Counted from the first letter of the stretch, positions 7,963 to 64,000 are shown. The stretch: 64,000 bases of DNA from an uncultured Bacilli bacterium (GCA_934096805.1 CAKOMW010000001.1:371712-435711), one strand, 5' to 3'. Made by a program: numbers and translations. The notes: generated from the letters alone by a model not told the origin.

Positions 7963-8430
7963 ATGAAGAAAAGTACAGAGATTATTTTTGTGATTTTAAC
8001 TATTTTATTACTTGGAGTTATTGTTTATTTTTCTTTTTTTAATGAAAAGAAGATTGATAATGTTGTGAATAAAAATGCAACTTTGGAGAATATAAAAAAG
8101 ACTGATGGAATGGTTAATGTTTATTTGTTTTATGGAAGGGAATGTCCTCATTGCGAAAAGTTAATGGAATATTTTGATAATATTAATGATAAGTATGGTG
8201 AACTTTTTAATCTTTATGGTTTTGAAGTATGGCATGATGGCAATAATCCTAATATAATGAAGGATTTTAGTTCTGCGATTGGTGATGATCTTGGTGGAGT
8301 TCCTTATTATATAATTGGGGATGAGTCTTTTGTTGGTTATAATTATACTTATGATGAAAAGATTGTTAAGGCTATAAAGAAGTATGCTAAGAGTGGTAGC
8401 GATGTTTATTTTGATAAGATAAAGAAGTAA
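7963..8430 (+). CDS. Membrane-anchored extracytoplasmic thioredoxin-like oxidoreductase (CPHC motif)
   Basis: N-terminal signal anchor, then YGRECPHCEKL, the CxxC motif of the DsbA/Bdb/Etrx type. Confidence 0.6.
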   Translation: MKKSTEIIFVILTILLLGVIVYFSFFNEKKIDNVVNKNATLENIKKTDGMVNVYLFYGRECPHCEKLMEYFDNINDKYGELFNLYGFEVWHDGNNPNIMKDFSSAIGDDLGGVPYYIIGDESFVGYNYTYDEKIVKAIKKYAKSGSDVYFDKIKK

Positions 8431-8526
8431 TTGGTTTACTTCTTTTTACATATAATTATTATAATTATAGTTCTTTTCTTTAAAATTGTGGTACAATATT
8501 GTTAAGCGTTATTTGCGGGGTGATTT

Positions 8527-9582
8527 ATGAAGAAAAGAAGATATTTTTTATCGTTTTTATTATTTTTTATCCTTTTTTTAATAACTTATTTTTGGATATT
8601 TAGATGTTATGATTTTAAATTTCTTATTGATTCTTTGAAATTGTGTAACATTAAGTATATATTGTTTGCTATTTTATCAATGTTTATGTTTCCTTTGTTT
8701 GAGGCAATATTTTTAAAGAGTATAGCACGGAATATGGGGATTGAAATGAGTTTTTATAAAGCTCTAGGCTATGTTTTTACGGAGATATATTTTTCGGGAA
8801 TTACACCCTCTTCGATGGGTGGACAGCCTGTTCAGATGTATGAGATGAATAGGGATGGTATTGAATATTATAAATCTAGTATTATTGTTTTGCTTAATAC
8901 AGTTATTTATAAGTGTACACTGGTATTTTTGCTTATTTTGTCTTTGATATTTTTTGGATCTTATATATTTAGTTATTCTACTTTATTTAATGTTCTTGTT
9001 TTAATTGGTTTTGTTATGAATGTTTTGATAATTCTTTTTTTTATAAGTTTGGTTTATTCTAAAAAGACTATTGATTCTACAAGGAAAATTTTTATGTGGT
9101 TTGTGAATAGGTTTAAGTTTATAAAAAATAAAGAGGTTATTTTTGAAAGGTTTGATAAAACTGTTTTGAAGTATAATGATTTAAGTGATTTTACAAGGAA
9201 GAAACCTTTTATTTTTGTCAAGTCTTTTATGATACTTTTAATGCAAAGAATTAGTTTTCTTTTAGTTAGTTATTTTATATATAAATCTTTTGGGCTTGAT
9301 GGTTTTAGTATATTTTTGGTTATTGCTTTTCAGGTTTGTATCGTGATGGCTGGAGACTTTATTCCTACTCCTGGTGGAGTGATGGTGTATGAAGGTATAA
9401 TTTTATCTATTAATGAGCTTTTATATGGAGAAGAGCTTGCTCTTTCTTCGATGTTACTTCAAAGGAGTATTAATTTTTATTTATTGATATTAATTAGTTT
9501 TATAATTTATTTAGTTTTTCATTATGATAAGAAAAGGAGAAAAAGGAAGGAGAAGATTTTGAATGAAAAAAAATATAGTTAA
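8527..9582 (+). CDS. Flippase-like membrane protein (lysylphosphatidylglycerol synthase TM-region family, UPF0104)
   Basis: 8 TM segments and the motif ITPSSMGGQPVQMYEM, typical of the LPG_synthase_TM / MprF N-terminal flippase domain. Confidence 0.55.
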   Translation: MKKRRYFLSFLLFFILFLITYFWIFRCYDFKFLIDSLKLCNIKYILFAILSMFMFPLFEAIFLKSIARNMGIEMSFYKALGYVFTEIYFSGITPSSMGGQPVQMYEMNRDGIEYYKSSIIVLLNTVIYKCTLVFLLILSLIFFGSYIFSYSTLFNVLVLIGFVMNVLIILFFISLVYSKKTIDSTRKIFMWFVNRFKFIKNKEVIFERFDKTVLKYNDLSDFTRKKPFIFVKSFMILLMQRISFLLVSYFIYKSFGLDGFSIFLVIAFQVCIVMAGDFIPTPGGVMVYEGIILSINELLYGEELALSSMLLQRSINFYLLILISFIIYLVFHYDKKRRKRKEKILNEKKYS

Positions 9583-10441
9583 TATGGTACAAGGTTTTTG
9601 TATGGCTCTTGCTGATAGTGTTCCTGGTATATCTGGGGGGACTGTTGCTTTTATCCTTGGTTTTTATGAAAAGTTTATTAATAGTGTTAATGCTATTGTT
9701 ACTAAGGGTGAAGATAAGAAAAAAGCGTTTTCGTTTTTGTTTAAATTAGGTATAGGATGGGCAATTGGAATGGCTCTTGCAGCGATTGTTTTGTCTAAGC
9801 TTTTTGAGGATCATATATATAGTGTTAGTTCACTTTTTATAGGGTTTATAGTGTTTGCAATTCCAATAATTATAAAGGAAGAGAAAAATACATTGAAAGG
9901 TAAGTATGGATATTTAATTTATTCTCTTATAGGAATAGCAATTGTTTCTTTGATTACTTATTTTAATCCTACTGGTGGAGGGAGTAATGTTGACCTTACT
10001 AATCTTAATCCTTTATTGTGTTTGTATGTGTTTATGGCTGGGGTTATTGCAATTTCCGCTATGGTGGTTCCTGGTATATCAGGTTCGACACTTTTGCTTA
10101 TTTTTGGTCTTTATGTACCTATTATTACTTCGATTAGTGAGGTGTTGCATTTTAATTTTGGCTTTTTACCTATTTTAATAGTATTTGGTTTTGGAGTTAT
10201 TACAGGATTGTTGCTTGTTGTTAAACTGATAAAGAAGGCTCTTGATAAGTATAGGGCTGAGACTATTTATATGGTGCTTGGTCTTATGGTTGGTTCAATA
10301 TATGCAATTATTATGGGTCCTACTAGTCTTAGTGTTCCTAAGGAAGCAATGAGTTTTGGTACTTTTAGTATTTTGTTCTTTATTTTTGGAGGTATTATTG
10401 TTTATGGACTTGAAGTTTTAAAAAGAAAACTTGATAAGTAG
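9563..10441 (+). CDS. DUF368 family membrane protein (polyprenyl-phosphate transporter family)
   Basis: Duplicated VPGISGGT / VPGISGST motifs characteristic of DUF368. Confidence 0.65.
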   Translation: MKKNIVNMVQGFCMALADSVPGISGGTVAFILGFYEKFINSVNAIVTKGEDKKKAFSFLFKLGIGWAIGMALAAIVLSKLFEDHIYSVSSLFIGFIVFAIPIIIKEEKNTLKGKYGYLIYSLIGIAIVSLITYFNPTGGGSNVDLTNLNPLLCLYVFMAGVIAISAMVVPGISGSTLLLIFGLYVPIITSISEVLHFNFGFLPILIVFGFGVITGLLLVVKLIKKALDKYRAETIYMVLGLMVGSIYAIIMGPTSLSVPKEAMSFGTFSILFFIFGGIIVYGLEVLKRKLDK

Positions 10442-10536
10442 TTTCATATTGGCACTTTTTAGTGCCTTTTTCTATGGGAAAATATTTTGTACATTGTGAT
10501 TTTATTTGCATATATTATGATAGCAGGAGGTGTATT

Positions 10537-11151
10537 ATGAATTTAGAGAGATGTTTTAATCCAAATGGTAATGTTGATGATATTAATAAAGTTAATTGTT
10601 TTTATATAGGTGTTCCTGGGACAAGGGGACAAAAAGGCGAAAAAGGAGATGTTGGTCCAAAGGGAGATAAAGGTGATATTGGACCTCAAGGTGAGAAAGG
10701 TGAAAAAGGTGATGCTGGAGAGTTAGTGCCTTCTTCGACTGAGGCTATGTTTGCGACTGGTTTTGTTGATAAAGATGATAATGGGGTAATGGAGTTTGAT
10801 ACGCCATGGCTTATACCCAGTGATTCTGCAATTTTTAAAAATGTGAGTAATACAGGAGTTGGAATTGTTTCTGGTATTTATGAGATTGTTGTGTCTGGTT
10901 TGATAAGAGAAGCTGATGACACACATGGGGCGGAGGTTTATCTTGCTAATAGTGAGGGCTCGGCAATTAAGGATTTAACCTTTGAACTAAAAGCAGGTTA
11001 TGGAAAACAAATGTATTTTTCGAAGAGCATTGCTTTTAGGTTTGAAAGTGATACGATTTTAAGTTTGAATGTTAATTTACTTGGTGATTTGGGGACTTCA
11101 AGTGTTGTTGTTGAAAATGTTAATTTAGTTATGAAGAAGATTCATGAATAG
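10537..11151 (+). CDS. Collagen-like triple-helix repeat protein with a BclA/C1q-like C-terminal domain
   Basis: Twelve GXY triplets (GVPGTRGQKGEKGDVGPKGDKGDIGPQGEKGEKGDAGE) followed by a ~150 aa beta-rich domain. An AGGAGGTG RBS precedes the ATG at 10537; the ORF track starts earlier at 10462. Confidence 0.6.
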   Translation: MNLERCFNPNGNVDDINKVNCFYIGVPGTRGQKGEKGDVGPKGDKGDIGPQGEKGEKGDAGELVPSSTEAMFATGFVDKDDNGVMEFDTPWLIPSDSAIFKNVSNTGVGIVSGIYEIVVSGLIREADDTHGAEVYLANSEGSAIKDLTFELKAGYGKQMYFSKSIAFRFESDTILSLNVNLLGDLGTSSVVVENVNLVMKKIHE

Positions 11152-11736
11152 AATGTTTTAAAGAAATTAATTAAAATTACTTGTATAAAGATTAAATAGG
11201 TAGTATATTATATATAAAGAAGCACGTTCTTTAAACGTCGATTTCATGTGTATACAAGTTGCGACGTTTCTCTATATCAGAGAGACGTCGCTTTAGTTAT
11301 TAATTAAACATTTAGATTAATCTATAGATGATAATTAATAAAAAAAGGATTATAATAAGCAGAATGCTAATCAAGTCGTTTTTTTTACTCATTATACATC
11401 ACCTCGCTTTCATAGAAAGTGAAGCCGACGCCCAAAGATACGTGCATGATACAAGTATAAAGTATATGAATACACAATGCAAATGAGTAAAAATGGCATT
11501 TGGTATAAAAAATAGTATTCAATTTTAAAAATTGTCTTAGGGAAAAATAACTTTTGATATAAAAGGGGATACTAAAAAGTATTATTTTGTATAAATTGAA
11601 AAAAATTCTTGAAAAAGAAGTTTTTTTGTTATAGAATTAACTTATAAGAAACTAAGAGAGGAGGAAGAAATTTTGTAATAAACATACATATGTTTGTGAA
11701 ATTTCTGAATTTTTTATGATAAACAAATATTCGTCT

Positions 11737-11747
11737 GGGGGGGGGGG
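11737..11747 (+). repeat. Homopolymeric G11 tract (candidate slipped-strand phase-variation switch)
   Basis: Eleven consecutive G in an otherwise ~28% GC region. It lies between an upstream ATG (11716) and the body of the 11792 surface-protein ORF. Confidence 0.9.
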
Positions 11748-11791
11748 TCAATACTACTAACCCTATAAATAAAAAAAGAAAGGTATTATAT

Positions 11792-13318
11792 TTGATAGCT
11801 TTATCAATGTTTAGTATAGGGATAATAACACTAAGCACTTATGCGTTATATAATAGTGAGTTAGTGACAGGTGAAAACACTATAAAATCAGGACAGGTAA
11901 AAATGAGTTATACTGAAGTAAATGAATTGGCTTTAAATAATGCGTTACCTATGAAAGATGAAGAAGGGAAAAATCTTAATGATTACTTTGATTTTACTGT
12001 GTCATCATGGATAAAAACAAATGCTAATGATAGTACAGAAAGAAAATTAAATTATAATATAGTAATAGAAATGATATCAATGTATATTAATGGAATGGAA
12101 ATACAAGAAGGAAATGATTATTATGTCCCAGGAAAACTTTTATCAGATTATATGTATAAAGTGTATTTAACTACTTTAGATGATAATGGTAATGAAACAG
12201 AAATAACAGAACCAATGACAATTGAAGAGTTAAATAATTATATTATTAAGTCTCAAGAAGAAACATTTAAAAATGGTAAAGCTCAAGTAGATACAAAATA
12301 TAGACTAAGGATATGGGTAGACTATAATTATGATGTAAATATATATAAAACTTTTAATGAAAATGACAATGGATTTACCGTAGATAGTGTAGGCTATAAA
12401 TTTAGAGTAAATGTAAATACAAATAAGATAGAACAACAAGAAATGATACCAATACTTAATATTCCATTGGGAAAAGATAAAACAATAAAAGTAACTCATG
12501 AAATAGATGATACTTTACAAGTAGATAATAAGTTTGCAACAGAATATAGATATACAGGTAAGAATCCTAATAATTATGTTTTATTTAATAATGAATTATG
12601 GAGAATAATAGGAGTAATACCTACTGAAGATACTTCTGGTAATGTAGAAAATAGATTAAAAATAATAAGAACTGAATCGATAGGAAATAAGAAATGGAAT
12701 AGTTGTGAATATACTGTCAAAAATTCTATTTATACTTGCAATGATTCTGGTAAATATTTAAATGATTGGACTGGTGCAACTTTAAATACATATTTAAATA
12801 ATGATTATTATAATACATTAACAAGTGATGCCAAAAACATGATAGGAACAACAAAGTATTATCTTGGAGGATATAGTGGTATAAATATAACATCTGATGT
12901 AATGTGGCAATATGAAAGAAAGAATGATACAAATAGAACAGAATATTATTATGGAACAAACCCAGTAATGCAAAATGATGCATCAAAAAAGATAGCGCTA
13001 ATGTATGCAAGCGATTATGGATATGCTTCAAGTAATGTATGTAAATCTGTCGTTACCAGCATAGGAGCATATGATTCATCTTTTTGCACCTCAACAAATT
13101 GGTTATATTCTGGTTCTGATGAATGGTTACTTCCGCAGAGTTCAGGCGATTCCAGCTATGCTTTCAGTGTGGATTCGACTAACGGTGTCGATAACTACTA
13201 CAACCTAGTCTACATAGACGAGTATACGGTCCGCCCAGTCCTTTATCTGTCATCTAACGTAAAGATTTCAGGTGGAAATGGGACTTCGGAACAACCATAT
13301 CAACTTAGTATCAGTTGA
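11792..13318 (+). CDS. Secreted surface protein, paralog A: TasA/SipW-type N-terminal signal region plus C-terminal DUF1566/Lcl-like C-type-lectin-fold domain. A-rich foreign composition.
   Basis: N-terminal LSTYALYNSELVTGENTIKSGQV resembles the TasA/camelysin AFNDIKS...GTLDL region. The C-terminus ends ...EWLLPQSS...YTVRPVLYL (DUF1566-like). The last ~40 codons switch to NNC codons. The TTG start at 11792 is the ORF-track call; an alternative ATG at 11716 becomes in-frame with G10. Confidence 0.6.
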   Translation: MIALSMFSIGIITLSTYALYNSELVTGENTIKSGQVKMSYTEVNELALNNALPMKDEEGKNLNDYFDFTVSSWIKTNANDSTERKLNYNIVIEMISMYINGMEIQEGNDYYVPGKLLSDYMYKVYLTTLDDNGNETEITEPMTIEELNNYIIKSQEETFKNGKAQVDTKYRLRIWVDYNYDVNIYKTFNENDNGFTVDSVGYKFRVNVNTNKIEQQEMIPILNIPLGKDKTIKVTHEIDDTLQVDNKFATEYRYTGKNPNNYVLFNNELWRIIGVIPTEDTSGNVENRLKIIRTESIGNKKWNSCEYTVKNSIYTCNDSGKYLNDWTGATLNTYLNNDYYNTLTSDAKNMIGTTKYYLGGYSGINITSDVMWQYERKNDTNRTEYYYGTNPVMQNDASKKIALMYASDYGYASSNVCKSVVTSIGAYDSSFCTSTNWLYSGSDEWLLPQSSGDSSYAFSVDSTNGVDNYYNLVYIDEYTVRPVLYLSSNVKISGGNGTSEQPYQLSIS

Positions 13319-13358
13319 GAGTTTTTGAACGAGTCTGCAAGGTAAAATCTTGCGACGA

Positions 13359-23303: not shown

Positions 23304-24155
23304 ATGAATCAGGATAAAATGCATTTAATTAACAAAATTTTTAATAATGAAACAATAAGAACTGTATGGGATAAAGAAGATGAAAAATATTATATTAGTG
23401 TTGTTGATATAGTAGGAGTTTTATCAGAAAGTGAAAATCCTAGAAATTATTGGAAAGTGTTAAAACACAGATTAAAAAAAGATGGGAATGAGTCGGTTAC
23501 AAATTGTAACCAACTGAAATTAAAGTCTTCAGATGGTAAATATTATAATACTGATGTAGTTGATATTGAGGGTATGTTTAGATTAATTGAATCTATTCCT
23601 AGTAAAAATGCTGAACCAATAAAAGGATGGTTAGCTAAATTAGGAAGTGAAAGAATTGATGAAGTATTTGACCCATCACTTGCAGCTCAAAGAGCTATAG
23701 ATATATATCGCGCTAAAGGTTATGATGAAAAATGGATTGCTAAGAGATTAAAAGGAATTCAAGATAGAAAAGAATTAACTGATATTTGGCAAGAAAATGG
23801 TATAACTGATGGTAAAGAATATGCTATATTAACCAATGAAATCTATAAAGAATGGTCTGGTATGACTGCAAAAGAGTATAAACAATATAAAGGACTTCGT
23901 AAAGAGTCTTTAAGAGATAATATGGATAATATTGAAATAATATTAACTGATTTATCAGAAGAAACTACAAAAAGATTTTCAGAAAAACATAAACCACAGG
24001 GTTTAGAGCAAAATAAAGAAGTTGCTAGAATGGGTGGACATGCAGCAAAAGTAGCAAGGGAATATATAGAAAGAAATCTGGGAGAATCTGTTGTTACTAA
24101 ACAAAATAGATTAAATTATGAATATAAAGATGAAATAAAAATTGAAATTAAATAA
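23304..24155 (+). CDS. Bro-N domain protein, DNA-damage-inducible protein D (DinD)-like / phage antirepressor-like
   Basis: The N-terminus has the Bro-N pattern (..WDKEDEKYYISVVDIVGVL...MFRLIESIPSKNAEPIKGWLAKLG) and a C-terminal helical domain. The A-rich composition is atypical for the host. Confidence 0.55.
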   Translation: MNQDKMHLINKIFNNETIRTVWDKEDEKYYISVVDIVGVLSESENPRNYWKVLKHRLKKDGNESVTNCNQLKLKSSDGKYYNTDVVDIEGMFRLIESIPSKNAEPIKGWLAKLGSERIDEVFDPSLAAQRAIDIYRAKGYDEKWIAKRLKGIQDRKELTDIWQENGITDGKEYAILTNEIYKEWSGMTAKEYKQYKGLRKESLRDNMDNIEIILTDLSEETTKRFSEKHKPQGLEQNKEVARMGGHAAKVAREYIERNLGESVVTKQNRLNYEYKDEIKIEIK

Positions 24156-41188: not shown

Positions 41189-42748
41189 ATGCCAGTTAGA
41201 GAAAAGTTTGATAGTTTTAAAAAGGATAATCCTTTGTTTAGAGATGTAAAAGAGTATAATAAGTATTTATTAATGTTGATTAGTGTTTCTATATTAGTAC
41301 TTACTGGGGTTATTTCTTATTTTGTAAGTGGTTCTTATGCTAGATGGAATATGGTTGTGGAGTCTAGTAACATATTGAAGTTAGGGGTTAAAAGTCTTAA
41401 TTTGGATGAAAGTGGTGCTAACAAGCCTGAACTTACAAGTAATATGATACCGGTTTATTATGATAATACAAGTAGTAGTTGGAAGAAAGCTGATGAAAAT
41501 AATAGGGATGAAGCTTATAAGTGGTATGATTATGATAGTAAAATGTGGGCAAATGCTGTAACTGTTACAGAAGCTAATAGAGATACTTATTTGAAAGCAA
41601 GCGCAGGTACAGAAATACCAATGGATGATATAAATACAATGTGGGTATGGATACCAAGATATACATATACATATCTGAAAACTAATACACCAGAAGAAAT
41701 AAAGATAAAGTTTGAGAAGGGAATAGAAAGCACAGGTACAATAAAGTGTACTGATAATGTATCAGGAAGTGGAACAACATCACAAACATGTACAGATACA
41801 ACAAATGGAGGTTTAAAAGCAGGAACAAGTACATATACCCATCCAGCTTTCACATTTGGAGATACAGAACTAACAGGATTATGGGTAGGTAAGTTTGAGA
41901 GTAGTGCAACAACAATACCAACAAGTGCTTCAACAACAGAATCTACAGTAATAATAAAACCAAATGTCCAATCATTAAGATATAAAACAGTATCATATCA
42001 ATTTAGAGATGCAAGACAAATGGAGAAAGCAAATAATGTATATGGCTTTTCACAAAGTAATAACACAACATTTAATTGGAATGGTAATTTAACTGGAGAT
42101 ATCAATAATATAGATATACATATGATGAAGAATACAGAATGGGGAGCAGTAACATATTTATATCATTCAAAATATGGAAGATGTACTTCTGGTACTTGTG
42201 TAGAATTAACAATAAATAACTGTAGTACATATACAACAGGAATAGGAGCAGATACAGTAAGTGCTAATGAGTCTTCGATAACATGTACGACAAATAAGAA
42301 TAAATATAATGGAGAAAGCGGAGTAAAAGCAAGTACAACAGGAAATGTATATGGTGTGTATGACATGTCTGGAGGCACATGGGAATATACAATGGGCAAT
42401 ATGGTAAATTCATCTAATCAATTTTATACATCAAGTGCAAGTAATTGGAGTACAACAACATATCCATTATCAAAGTACTATGATAGTTATACATATAATA
42501 CTGATGAAGCAACATATTCAAAAGGAAGGTTAGGAGATGCAACAATAGAAATGAGTCCTTCATCTAGTTCTACTACTTCATGGTATTCAGATTATGCCTT
42601 CTTCCCATACTCGAACATGACTTGGTTCCTACGTGGGGGTGGCTACAGTAATGGTACGGGTGTGGGTGCTTTCTCCTTTGGATTTGGCAATGGTTCTGCG
42701 CTCAACTTCCGCTCGTTTCGGGTTTCTCTTGGCGTTCAGGCCTCTTAA
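41189..42748 (+). CDS. Secreted protein, paralog B: SipW/TasA-type signal-anchor plus C-terminal FGE-sulfatase-like C-type-lectin-fold domain (candidate DGR variable protein)
   Basis: N-terminal ...GSYARWNMVVESSNILKLG after a hydrophobic anchor. The C-terminal GNVYGVYDMSGGTWEYT ... RGGGYSNG ... NFRSFRVS matches the FGE-sulfatase signature motifs (G.YDM.GN.WEW, RGGS., GFR). The last ~45 codons are GC-rich NNC/NNT. A GGAGGT RBS precedes the start. Confidence 0.65.
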   Translation: MPVREKFDSFKKDNPLFRDVKEYNKYLLMLISVSILVLTGVISYFVSGSYARWNMVVESSNILKLGVKSLNLDESGANKPELTSNMIPVYYDNTSSSWKKADENNRDEAYKWYDYDSKMWANAVTVTEANRDTYLKASAGTEIPMDDINTMWVWIPRYTYTYLKTNTPEEIKIKFEKGIESTGTIKCTDNVSGSGTTSQTCTDTTNGGLKAGTSTYTHPAFTFGDTELTGLWVGKFESSATTIPTSASTTESTVIIKPNVQSLRYKTVSYQFRDARQMEKANNVYGFSQSNNTTFNWNGNLTGDINNIDIHMMKNTEWGAVTYLYHSKYGRCTSGTCVELTINNCSTYTTGIGADTVSANESSITCTTNKNKYNGESGVKASTTGNVYGVYDMSGGTWEYTMGNMVNSSNQFYTSSASNWSTTTYPLSKYYDSYTYNTDEATYSKGRLGDATIEMSPSSSSTTSWYSDYAFFPYSNMTWFLRGGGYSNGTGVGAFSFGFGNGSALNFRSFRVSLGVQAS

Positions 42749-62305: not shown

Positions 62306-62403
62306 AAAATGTTTAATTTGGGTTAAAAATAAAGTGAAAGTACTTTATTTTTTTTTGGTTTCTTGTTATAATTTAAATAGTATAGGATACAAGGAGTGAT
62401 ACT

Positions 62404-64000
62404 TGTGAGGAAAAATATTACTAAAGATGATATAAAAAAGATGTTACCTGCTTTAGTAGTGTTATTTATTTTAATAGCATTAGGTACATATGCTTTTGAT
62501 AAAGTTGATTTACTTGGTAAACAAAATTTAGGAATAGTTGCTAATGAAGAGGTGGCTTTAAGGCTTGTTGAGGGGGAACAAGATTTTAAAGTAGGGAATA
62601 CTCCTCTTAGTGATAGTGCTGGGAAGGCTCAGACTACTTATTATGAGTTTAATGTAGAAGGGGTTTCTAATGTTGTATATAATTTAGATTATTATTTGTA
62701 TTTGATACCTAAAAATGGTGGTAATACAGTTGATGCTTCTTTTGTTAAACTTTATCTTACTAAAGTGGTTAATAATTCTGAGACAGTAGTGGTTGATGTT
62801 ACTACTTTAGATAAGTTAAAGGATTTTGGATTTAATAAGTTAGTTACAAATAGCACTTTTAATTTTACTAGTAATAGTAAGACTACTAAAACAGATACAT
62901 ATAGATTAAGAGTTTGGTTAGCTGAAGGTGCTACTGATAATGAAGAAACGGCTCCTGATGTAAAAGAAACTGATGATGGTCTTAATATTAAGGCTATATC
63001 AGGAGGGTATAGTTTTAGTATGGGTGTTAGTTCATATAAGATTGGTGAACCTAATAAACCAGAGTTAACTAGTAATATGATACCTGTGTATTATGATAGT
63101 ACGAATGCAGTATGGAAAAAAGCAGATAGTAGTAATACAAATGAAACATATAAATGGTATGATTATGATAATAAAATGTGGGCAAATGCTGTGACTGTTA
63201 CTGAAACTAATAGAGATACTTATTTGAAAGCGAATGCAGGAACAGAAATAAATATGAATGATATAAATACAATGTGGGTATGGATACCAAGATATACATA
63301 TACATATTTAAATACAAATACACCAGAGGAGATAAAGATAAAGTTTGAAAATGGAACAGAAAGTCATGGTACAATAAAGTGTACTGATGCAGTAACAGGA
63401 AATGGCACAACATCCCAAACATGTACAGATACAACAAATGGAAGTTTAAAAGCAGGAACCAGTACATATACACATCCAGCTTTTACATTTGGAGATACAG
63501 AATTAACAGGATTATGGGTAGGAAAGTTTGAGAGTAGTGCAACAGAAATACCAACATCATCATCTACAACAGAATCAACAATTATAATAAAACCAAATGT
63601 CCAGTCATTAAGATATAAAGCAGTATCATATTTCTTTCGCGATGCCCGACAAATGGAGAAAACAAGTAATGTATATGGTTTTCCACAAAGTAGTAGTACA
63701 ACATTTAACTACAACGGTAATTTAACTGGAGACACAAATAATATAGATATACATATGATGAAGAATACAGAATGGGGAGCAGTAACATATTTATATCATA
63801 GTAAATATGGAAGATGTACAAACGGTTCATGTGAAGAAATAACAATAAATAATTGTATTAATATGACAACAGGAATAGGAGCAGACACAGTAAGTGCAAG
63901 CAGGTCTGATACAACATGTACAACAGATAAGAATAAATATAATGGAGAGAGTGGAGTAAAAGCATCAACCACTGGAAATGTATATGGTGTGTACGACATG
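62404..64000 (+). CDS. Secreted protein, paralog C (partial, runs off the window end): TasA/SipW-type N-terminal region plus the same FGE-sulfatase-like lectin-fold core as 41189-42748
   Basis: GTG start behind an AAGGAG RBS. N-terminal LGTYAFDKVDLLGKQNLGIVANEEVAL resembles the TasA N-terminus. From NKPELTSNMIPVYYD to NVYGVYDM it is visibly almost identical to paralog B (only scattered residue and base differences, 63054-64000 vs 41419-42367). Confidence 0.6.

Follow-up and report, generated by a model that had tools for sequence, protein, structure and literature searches.

We analysed a contiguous stretch of 64,000 nucleotides from an uncultured Bacilli bacterium (GCA_934096805.1, CAKOMW010000001.1:371712-435711), hereafter the window, with a focus on the gene at 11792-13318, the 3' end of which (13131-13241) we interpret as the variable region (VR) of a target of a diversity-generating retroelement (DGR), with a probability of about 0.88. 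The product of this gene combines an N-terminal membrane anchor and a stalk module with a C-terminal domain resembling the lectin-like DUF6273. An exact database look-up of the version starting at the TTG codon returned no record, the called gene beginning at the downstream ATG. The features of the locus, along with those of a retroelement cassette from a related genome that is central to our argument, are collected in Table 1.

Table 1. Features of the target locus in the window and of the cassette at locus L026 of the related genome CAKOLK (TR, template repeat; RT, reverse transcriptase; IMH, initiation of mutagenic homing).
Feature	Position	Strand	Remarks
5' end of the gene	11716..11791	+	ATG at 11716, MINKYSS-(G)n-VNTTNPINKKRKVLY; out of frame with the main open reading frame here
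Poly-G tract, 11 G	11737..11747	+	21 nt after the ATG; OFF register, 10 G = ON
Target-gene open reading frame	11792..13318	+	508 aa from TTG, or 503 aa from ATG 11807 (P0001)
Match to DUF6273 (PF19789), lectin-like ligand-binding domain	12725..13252	+	aa 312-487; putative VR at its C-terminal end
Putative VR, homologous to sister-species TRs	13131..13241	+	alignments to TR26, TR77, TR85; mutagenised core 13136-13225
GC-rich 3' boundary of the VR, IMH-like	13226..13241	+	ACGGTCCGCCCAGTCC; TR-VR homology stops here
Hairpin just past the stop codon	13329..13360	+	core stem 13333-13356, loop GTAAAAT
L026 cassette, target gene	8201-10885
L026 cassette, TR	~11083-11187
L026 cassette, RT	11731-12840		contains IGNMTSQ and YMDD

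The codons of the gene, counted in frame from 11792, undergo a marked change of type towards its 3' end. The frequency of C at the third position (C3), measured in 40-codon windows, stays at 0.00-0.10 until approximately 12930 and then climbs to 0.42 at 13142, and the GC content, taken over 120 nt at a time, goes up from 0.22-0.28 to 0.40-0.43 in the interval 13040-13340. The shift spans the last ~60 codons, the rest of the gene having a GC content of ~0.25 and a C3 of ~0.03. Given the C3 of 0.051 for the entire 64-kb window (17,658 codons; overall GC 29.8%), the binomial probability of finding at least 17 C-ending codons out of 40 is 3e-12. Minus-strand genes in the window show C3 values of 0.22-0.32 throughout, and because this strand asymmetry is very strong, the plus-strand genes are the fair comparison; among these, C3 exceeds 0.125 only in 11792-13318 (maximum 0.425, at codon 451) and in 41189-42748 (0.375, at codon 469). 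The codon switch is therefore real and far beyond chance, in agreement with a preliminary description of this DNA, made from the sequence alone, which had drawn attention to a C-terminal codon switch in an AT-rich gene. Some of its details need correction. The compositional block is wider (~13040-13340) than the 13141-13260 originally delimited, and the stretch that matches template repeats is 13131-13241. Furthermore, the switched codons were all taken for derivatives of AAC: this applies to agt, ggc, gat, agc, tat, tac, gac and others, which derive from AAC or AAT in the template, but tca, tcc, gct ttc, gtg, tcg, gtc and cgc cca are unchanged template scaffold, and the supposed run of NNC codons includes many variable codons with T, rather than C, in the third position.

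A segment of such composition might also have been recombined in from a higher-GC donor, an alternative that the preliminary description had itself put forward. The local GC content of 0.43, as against 0.25 in the rest of the gene, would fit an import of this kind, as would the status of the whole gene as a compositional outlier, with an AT skew of +0.16 as opposed to negative values in its neighbours. However, the same GC-rich block occurs at the same place in every family member of every genome examined, and it matches an endogenous TR, making a foreign relative unnecessary; we regard this explanation as hardly credible.

The family to which the target protein belongs is very large, with more than 5,366 matches. 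Among the GTDB representatives it is concentrated in a few metagenome-assembled genomes (MAGs) named 'uncultured Bacilli bacterium' from the Hadza gut, two of which carry at least 17 and at least 22 loci. Housekeeping DNA of these MAGs is ~83-85% identical to that of the window, and they therefore represent sister species of the window's species; the latter is not itself among the GTDB representative genomes, where the best relative of the protein is 56-57% identical. Relatives of these low-GC gut Bacilli have been labelled Mycoplasma sp. CAG:611 or Tenericutes. With respect to its C-terminal domain, the protein scored 20.5 bits against the DUF6273 profile (E = 4.8e-4), below the curated cut-off of 23.5, whereas no match was obtained with the DUF1566 profile. 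PF19789 was detected at E < 0.01 in 22 of 32 relatives (best 3.9e-5), and several homologs carry precomputed hits to it. Judging from these profile matches, the domain is a divergent relative of DUF6273 rather than a clean member. A resemblance to DUF1566/Lcl-C had been proposed earlier; the lectin-like fold stands, though the family is DUF6273, and the two folds are related. The target domain was found to be similar in fold to a solved DUF6273 or C-type lectin (CLec) structure, and its sole solved relative sits in a gut-bacterial immunoglobulin A (IgA) protease. A structure search of BFVD yielded nothing significant and a sequence-profile search of PDB no match; a structure prediction for the full-length protein, with a predicted local distance difference test score (pLDDT) of 55 and values below 50 in the C-terminal domain, was too poor for use.

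In protein alignments, the closest homologs (70-88% identical overall) share a hypervariable block between EWLLPQ and VRPVL, in which the fixed pattern S..AF.V.S.G.V...E alternates with sites taking almost any of N, S, T, Y, D, G, A, F, L, I, H, R, C and V. This block corresponds to 13131-13241, and is hypervariable likewise in alleles from syntenic strains. In the pair P0006 and P0008, 15 of 32 residues differ within the VR, as against 18 of 425 elsewhere.

Scanning of the retrieved loci for the scaffold motif uncovered a template repeat in the sister MAG CAKOLK. At its locus L026, a non-coding copy of the block lies 380 nt downstream of a family member; this template repeat translates as QNSDNSNNAFNVNSSGYVNNNNNVNNNEYAVRP and is hereafter termed TR26. 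It is followed by a small open reading frame and then by a 369-aa RT matching RVT_1. Complete cassettes were found at L026, L075, L077, L084, L085/L086 and L090, of which L075 and L090 were recovered via an RT homolog and a bAvd homolog, respectively, and L077, a single metagenome match, through a scan with the conserved TR-spacer (TR core, CAGAATTCAGAYAATTCYAACAAYGCTTTCAATGTGAAYTCGASTGGCTATGTC; spacer, GAGTGTATTAAAGGACAAAACATATCTTTGAG). The order of genes in intact cassettes is target-TR-(MutS-like open reading frame, MSL)-bAvd-RT, and the corresponding profile matches are to RVT_1, bAvd and, weakly, MutS_I (E = 0.0065), on which the MSL assignment is based. The templates are not all of one kind: L084 (P0123) has a different TR type, and L090 (P0263) one of the TR75 type. 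The contigs of L085 and L086 (P0258) begin just upstream of the TR, and no TR was found on the contigs of P0122 and P0260 (L089).

To quantify the differences between template and targets, we counted mismatches separately at the 35 adenines and the 52 other bases of the 87-nt core of TR26. The VR adjacent to TR26 (L026) differs from it at 16/35 adenines and 0/52 other positions, in addition to a 3-nt insertion. On other contigs of CAKOLK, the corresponding values are 13/35 and 0/52 for L004, 19/35 and 0/52 for L010, and 15/33 and 1/51 for L033. Remote (trans) targeting is shown in CAKOLK by L004 and L010, neither of which has a non-adenine mismatch to the single TR found. The CAKOLK paralogs L015, L042 and L054, compared over two ungapped TR26 blocks with 59 non-adenine positions, show 5-7 non-adenine mismatches. 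Current targets thus occur in the family alongside copies that have decayed or were templated differently. L075 and L090, which come from two samples, agree in both TR and flanks but not in their VRs; this pair constitutes direct evidence of live diversification in that lineage.

Some further observations were made on the cassettes. The ~110 nt downstream of the TR (L026 11188-11300; also L075, L077, L084 and L090) are strongly conserved, with more than 40 nt identical (GGTTATTATATGAGTGTATTAAAGGACAAAACATATCTTTGAGT), and presumably represent the spacer of the DGR RNA that primes cDNA synthesis. In L026, an in-frame deletion has fused the MutS-like open reading frame and bAvd into a 124-aa frame lacking most of Avd (11367-11741), whereas both genes are intact in near-identical cassettes of other samples (L077 4287-4975; L085 646-1336); despite this fusion, three CAKOLK VRs have no non-adenine mismatch to the TR. 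At L072 of the more distant MAG CAKOMS, a degenerate Avd-RT cassette, with its RT split by frameshifts, lies between two DUF6273-like genes (518-2090). Scans with the TR-spacer and TR core gave no match in IMG/VR, and the RT has no relatives there, so that a phage origin is not supported.

The segment 13131-13241 of the window can be aligned, codon by codon, to the VRs and TRs at L026, L077 and L085. At the scaffold codons (tca, tcc, gct ttc, gtg, tcg, gtc, gag tat, cgc cca g) it agrees fully with the TRs, and its variable codons fall where the TRs read AAT or AAC. Against TR26, which is the closest available TR and belongs to a different species, the window VR differs at 14/35 adenines and 5/52 other positions (Fisher p = 1e-3) and carries a 3-nt insertion; two paralogs from the window's own genome have 16/35 versus 4/52 and 18/35 versus 4/52. 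Three other strains carry the gene at the same place, with a collagen-like gene upstream, and an SDR gene and truA downstream; relative to the window, their flanks are ~100% and their N-terminal halves 96-100% identical, yet their VRs are only 53-68% identical. The mismatches of these alleles to TR26, at adenines and other bases respectively, number 22/33 and 2/51 in L078, 13/35 and 3/52 in L079, and 13/35 and 2/52 in L081, which is hypervariability across strains at A-templated positions (13-22 adenine against 2-3 other mismatches), of the kind that the preliminary description had suggested looking for. Since the strain alleles and the paralogs from the same genome mismatch TR26 mainly at its adenines, the TR of this species is likely to be close to TR26; and since the strain VRs differ mainly at TR adenines between nearly identical flanks, a DGR appears to have acted on the locus after these strains diverged.

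At one cluster of the window VR, 'act aac ggt' stands in place of the 'aGt/aCt ggc tat' of the TRs; TR85, the template of L085/L086, accounts for the 'act' codon but not for 'aac ggt'. There are also two C-to-A changes at third positions and an extra codon. The gain or loss of one codon inside an (AAC)n run was observed in several VRs (L026 10703-10812, L075, and 13208-13210 of the window), including the cis VR of L026, which is otherwise free of non-adenine mismatches to its TR. This suggests slippage within the AAC repeats, either by the RT or during integration.

Diversifying selection combined with a gene-conversion hotspot among paralogs could in principle yield a variable block with no retroelement involved, the C-rich codons then reflecting amino-acid choice. 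The many paralogs per genome, and the variation of the whole C-terminal domain between strains, are in keeping with such a process. It would not account for the non-coding TR copies beside an RT, which read AAC or AAT at every variable codon, for the three VRs with 0/52 non-adenine but 13-19/35 adenine mismatches, or for the identity of the scaffold codons at synonymous sites across species, and we therefore consider it very improbable. The homology to the TRs, the adenine bias and the strain alleles instead uphold the central proposal that the C-terminal switch was left by a DGR acting on the gene of a lectin-fold surface protein. Under this proposal, the gene would encode a membrane-anchored surface protein with a lectin-like DUF6273 tip specified by a cassette of two codon types, in which scaffold codons devoid of mutable adenines (tcc, gct ttc, gtg, tcg, gtc) alternate with codons templated as AAC or AAT. 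In the sister species, the cassette would transcribe the TR, the RT would copy it with random bases at adenines, and the resulting cDNA would replace the VR of the adjacent gene as well as those of paralogs elsewhere in the genome. The outcome would be NNC and NNT codons forming a GC-rich block in a gene of otherwise 25% GC. The copy in the window would then have been written by a TR at some other site of the same genome, or in the same population.

The 3' end of the VR offers further points of comparison with characterized DGRs. At the boundary listed in Table 1, the TRs read CGCCCAGCCCC where the VRs read CGCCCAGTCC. The hairpin past the stop codon is conserved in more than 20 paralogs, with compensatory changes in 5 of 12 predicted pairs. 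It is unlike an intrinsic terminator because no T-run follows it, and Rfam searches detected only five tRNAs in the window, none of them near the VR gene. We consider the hairpin a candidate target-recognition structure; by analogy with the Bordetella phage BPP-1, the IMH-like boundary and the hairpin may together guide homing. The preliminary description had suggested looking for an IMH-like element at the 3' end of the VR, and this GC-rich boundary with its nearby conserved hairpin fits that description at the sequence level.

Several lines of evidence weigh against the reading of 13131-13241 as a DGR-written VR. 1) Of the four alleles, that of the window lies farthest from any available TR; its non-adenine mismatches, 5 in the core and 8 when the 3' boundary is included, exceed those of the sister alleles and are joined by the 3-nt insertion, and about half of these changes are GC-to-AT, as drift predicts. 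2) The window protein is identical on 8 contigs and, with an in-frame N-terminus, on one more, making 9 assemblies in all. 3) Strains with identical flanks also differ by 7-24% in the part of the C-terminal domain that lies outside the VR, which points to allele replacement by recombination between paralogs in addition to homing. 4) The window has no TR by either a plain repeat scan or one tolerating any base at TR adenines, no RT by a YxDD scan in six frames (two matches, neither in an RT context), and no Avd. 5) None of the best 120 RT hits and none of the 44 bAvd hits falls on the 539-, 477-, 433- and 325-kb contigs of this species. 6) The structure prediction for the domain alone is of moderate quality (pLDDT 61). 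In the 21.7 kb surrounding two paralogs from the window's own genome, too, there is no TR, RT or Avd. The preliminary description had already noted the lack of a TR or RT in the window, which the adenine-tolerant repeat scan, the YxDD scan and a repeat search confirm. Its corollary, a remote target served in trans, is borne out insofar as trans paralogs in CAKOLK share one TR; the TR and RT of the present genome were not found in the regions just listed. The variation among strains is not confined to the VR, given the changes in the remainder of the domain, and the window allele itself is invariant in the 9 assemblies. On the stretch 12675-13130, identity between strains ranges from 38 to 93%; a block of indels occupies 12675-12790, and a cysteine-loop region varies at 13046-13090. 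This pattern points to mosaic replacement among paralogs of a kind that a DGR cannot explain.

These observations bear most directly on the possibility that the window carries a relic VR, written in an ancestor or imported from a paralog, and now shaped only by drift and paralog recombination with no DGR acting on it. The identity of the allele across assemblies, its 5-8 non-adenine mismatches and insertion relative to the nearest TR (sister alleles have 2-3 such mismatches), the lack of RT and Avd hits on the large contigs and the mosaic domain outside the VR would all be expected of a relic, as would the OFF register of the poly-G tract; in CAKOLK, too, L015, L042 and L054 are similarly decayed beside TR26. 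Against this stand strains of the same species with ~100% identical flanks, the VRs of which differ almost only at TR adenines, indicating that a DGR acted in the species very recently, and also the intact GC-rich boundary and hairpin. The absence from large contigs is weak evidence, because cassettes elsewhere sit on short contigs that break at the TR. We place the relic just short of even odds. We rate the DGR origin of the segment as highly probable, and consider it somewhat less likely than not that this particular allele is still being rewritten.

A second form of variation appears to be superimposed on the gene at its 5' end. The poly-G tract at 11737-11747 is the only run of eight or more G or C in the window. 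With 10 G, the N-terminus reads MINKYSSGGGVNTTNPINKKRKVLY..., and exactly this protein is P0241 of another assembly; the N-terminus is also in frame in P0005 and L079. Dozens of paralogs, drawn from all the related genomes (L001, L007-L079), begin in the same way, with 9-11 G placed 18-21 nt past the ATG, and of the scorable tracts 7/38 are in frame and 31/38 out of frame. Judging by these tract lengths, the poly-G run likely functions as a slipped-strand phase switch layered on the DGR. Poly-G genes of Campylobacter and variable surface proteins of Mycoplasma are likewise homopolymer contingency genes in which tract length sets the frame; in the window family, the length varies between copies and assemblies in the same manner, and it is from these lengths that we infer switching. 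The protein may accordingly be a variable adhesin or receptor, the expression of which is gated by the 5' tract. The literature searched contained no case of poly-G phase variation combined with a DGR-written tip. We envisage, as an evenly balanced proposition, a two-tier system in which the poly-G switch selects a few expressed genes out of dozens of paralogs (~80% being OFF), and a single chromosomal MSL-bAvd-RT DGR rewrites the lectin-like tips of its adjacent gene and, in trans, of several paralogs, perhaps also serving the FGE-sulfatase-like family typified by gene 41189-42748. If correct, this would be a retroelement-driven counterpart of the antigenic or adhesin variation seen in Mycoplasma.

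Comparison with characterized systems indicates that neither the kind of element nor its mechanism is new, whereas the host group and the protein family are. DUF6273 is a published lectin-like DGR target in gut phages, with the VR at its C-terminal end (PMC10743442, PMC11792537). The tentaclins of nd4/nd12 and the targets in the Faecalibacterium prophages Lelie, CP11, Roos and Pioen share with the window family PF19789 (a weak match here), the C-terminal VR and codons derived from AAC/AAT. They differ from it in being phage tail or receptor-binding proteins, whereas the window family consists of chromosomal, membrane-anchored, multi-copy cellular proteins; moreover, in tentaclins DUF6273 is N-terminal, as opposed to C-terminal in the window protein. 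A parallel in organization is offered by the TvpA DGR of Treponema denticola, which is likewise cellular and uses one TR for an adjacent gene and remote paralogs encoding surface proteins of the CLec type (PMC5758913, PMC4891356). LdtA of Legionella pneumophila and the MSL-containing 'Architecture D' DGRs (Wu et al. 2018, PMC5758913) have the same gene order as the sister cassettes and a surface-displayed target, although LdtA is a lipoprotein with a different target domain, and the MSL assignment in the sister cassettes rests on a weak MutS_I match. Our family resembles the Mtd/Brt/Avd system of BPP-1 in that TR and VR differ specifically at adenines, the VR occupies the 3' end of the target gene, and a GC-rich boundary and a downstream hairpin are present. 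Whereas the hairpin of BPP-1 directly follows the IMH, the one described here lies ~90 nt past the VR end, on the far side of the stop codon; the fold family of the target is also different, and targets act in trans.

From a practical standpoint, composition by itself can be enough to locate a remote DGR target with neither template nor RT in the sequence at hand, the cue being that the codons near the end of a gene in an AT-rich genome turn locally to C-ending, adenine-poor ones. The findings also place a DGR-diversified lectin-like surface family in uncultured small-genome gut Bacilli, from Hadza as well as other human samples, and its members are candidate variable adhesins or receptors in interactions with the host, phages or IgA. 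The family might further provide a test case for the number of paralogs that a single DGR can serve, and for the decay of VRs after homing has ceased. The trans targeting of multiple paralogs, the poly-G gating and the probable second target family deserve to be pursued.

The latter family is represented in the window by gene 41189-42748, a weakly FGE-sulfatase-like gene with a C-terminus of C-ending codons (block ~42593-42745). Its paralogs in the sister genomes are hypervariable at the same block, on the scaffold PW.LRGG.Y..G...AGAF.F......G.A....SARAV, and it probably represents a second family of DGR targets; no TR for a C-terminus of this type was detected among the loci scanned. Gene 62402-64000, which runs off the end of the window, is a paralog of 41189-42748, the two sharing a repeat (41418-41717 and 63051-63350) with 84% DNA identity over 300 nt. 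The N-terminal anchor and stalk module of 62402-64000 resemble those of 11792-13318, and it seems that one stalk carries different lectin-like tips.

The window as a whole shows an extreme strand asymmetry, its plus-strand genes having a C3 of ~0.03 and a GC skew of approximately +0.45. Four genes, 11792-13318, 41189-42748, 62402-63999 and 23304-24155, stand out as compositional outliers with AT skews of +0.13 to +0.23 (the value of +0.16 for 11792-13318 being that cited above) and GC skews mostly of 0.22-0.28 (0.39 for 23304-24155). Nearly all other plus-strand genes have AT skews of about -0.03 to -0.44, three lying at +0.01 to +0.06, and GC skews of 0.31-0.67. This suggests that the surface-protein genes have not equilibrated with the local strand bias, be it through copy-to-copy recombination or recent acquisition.

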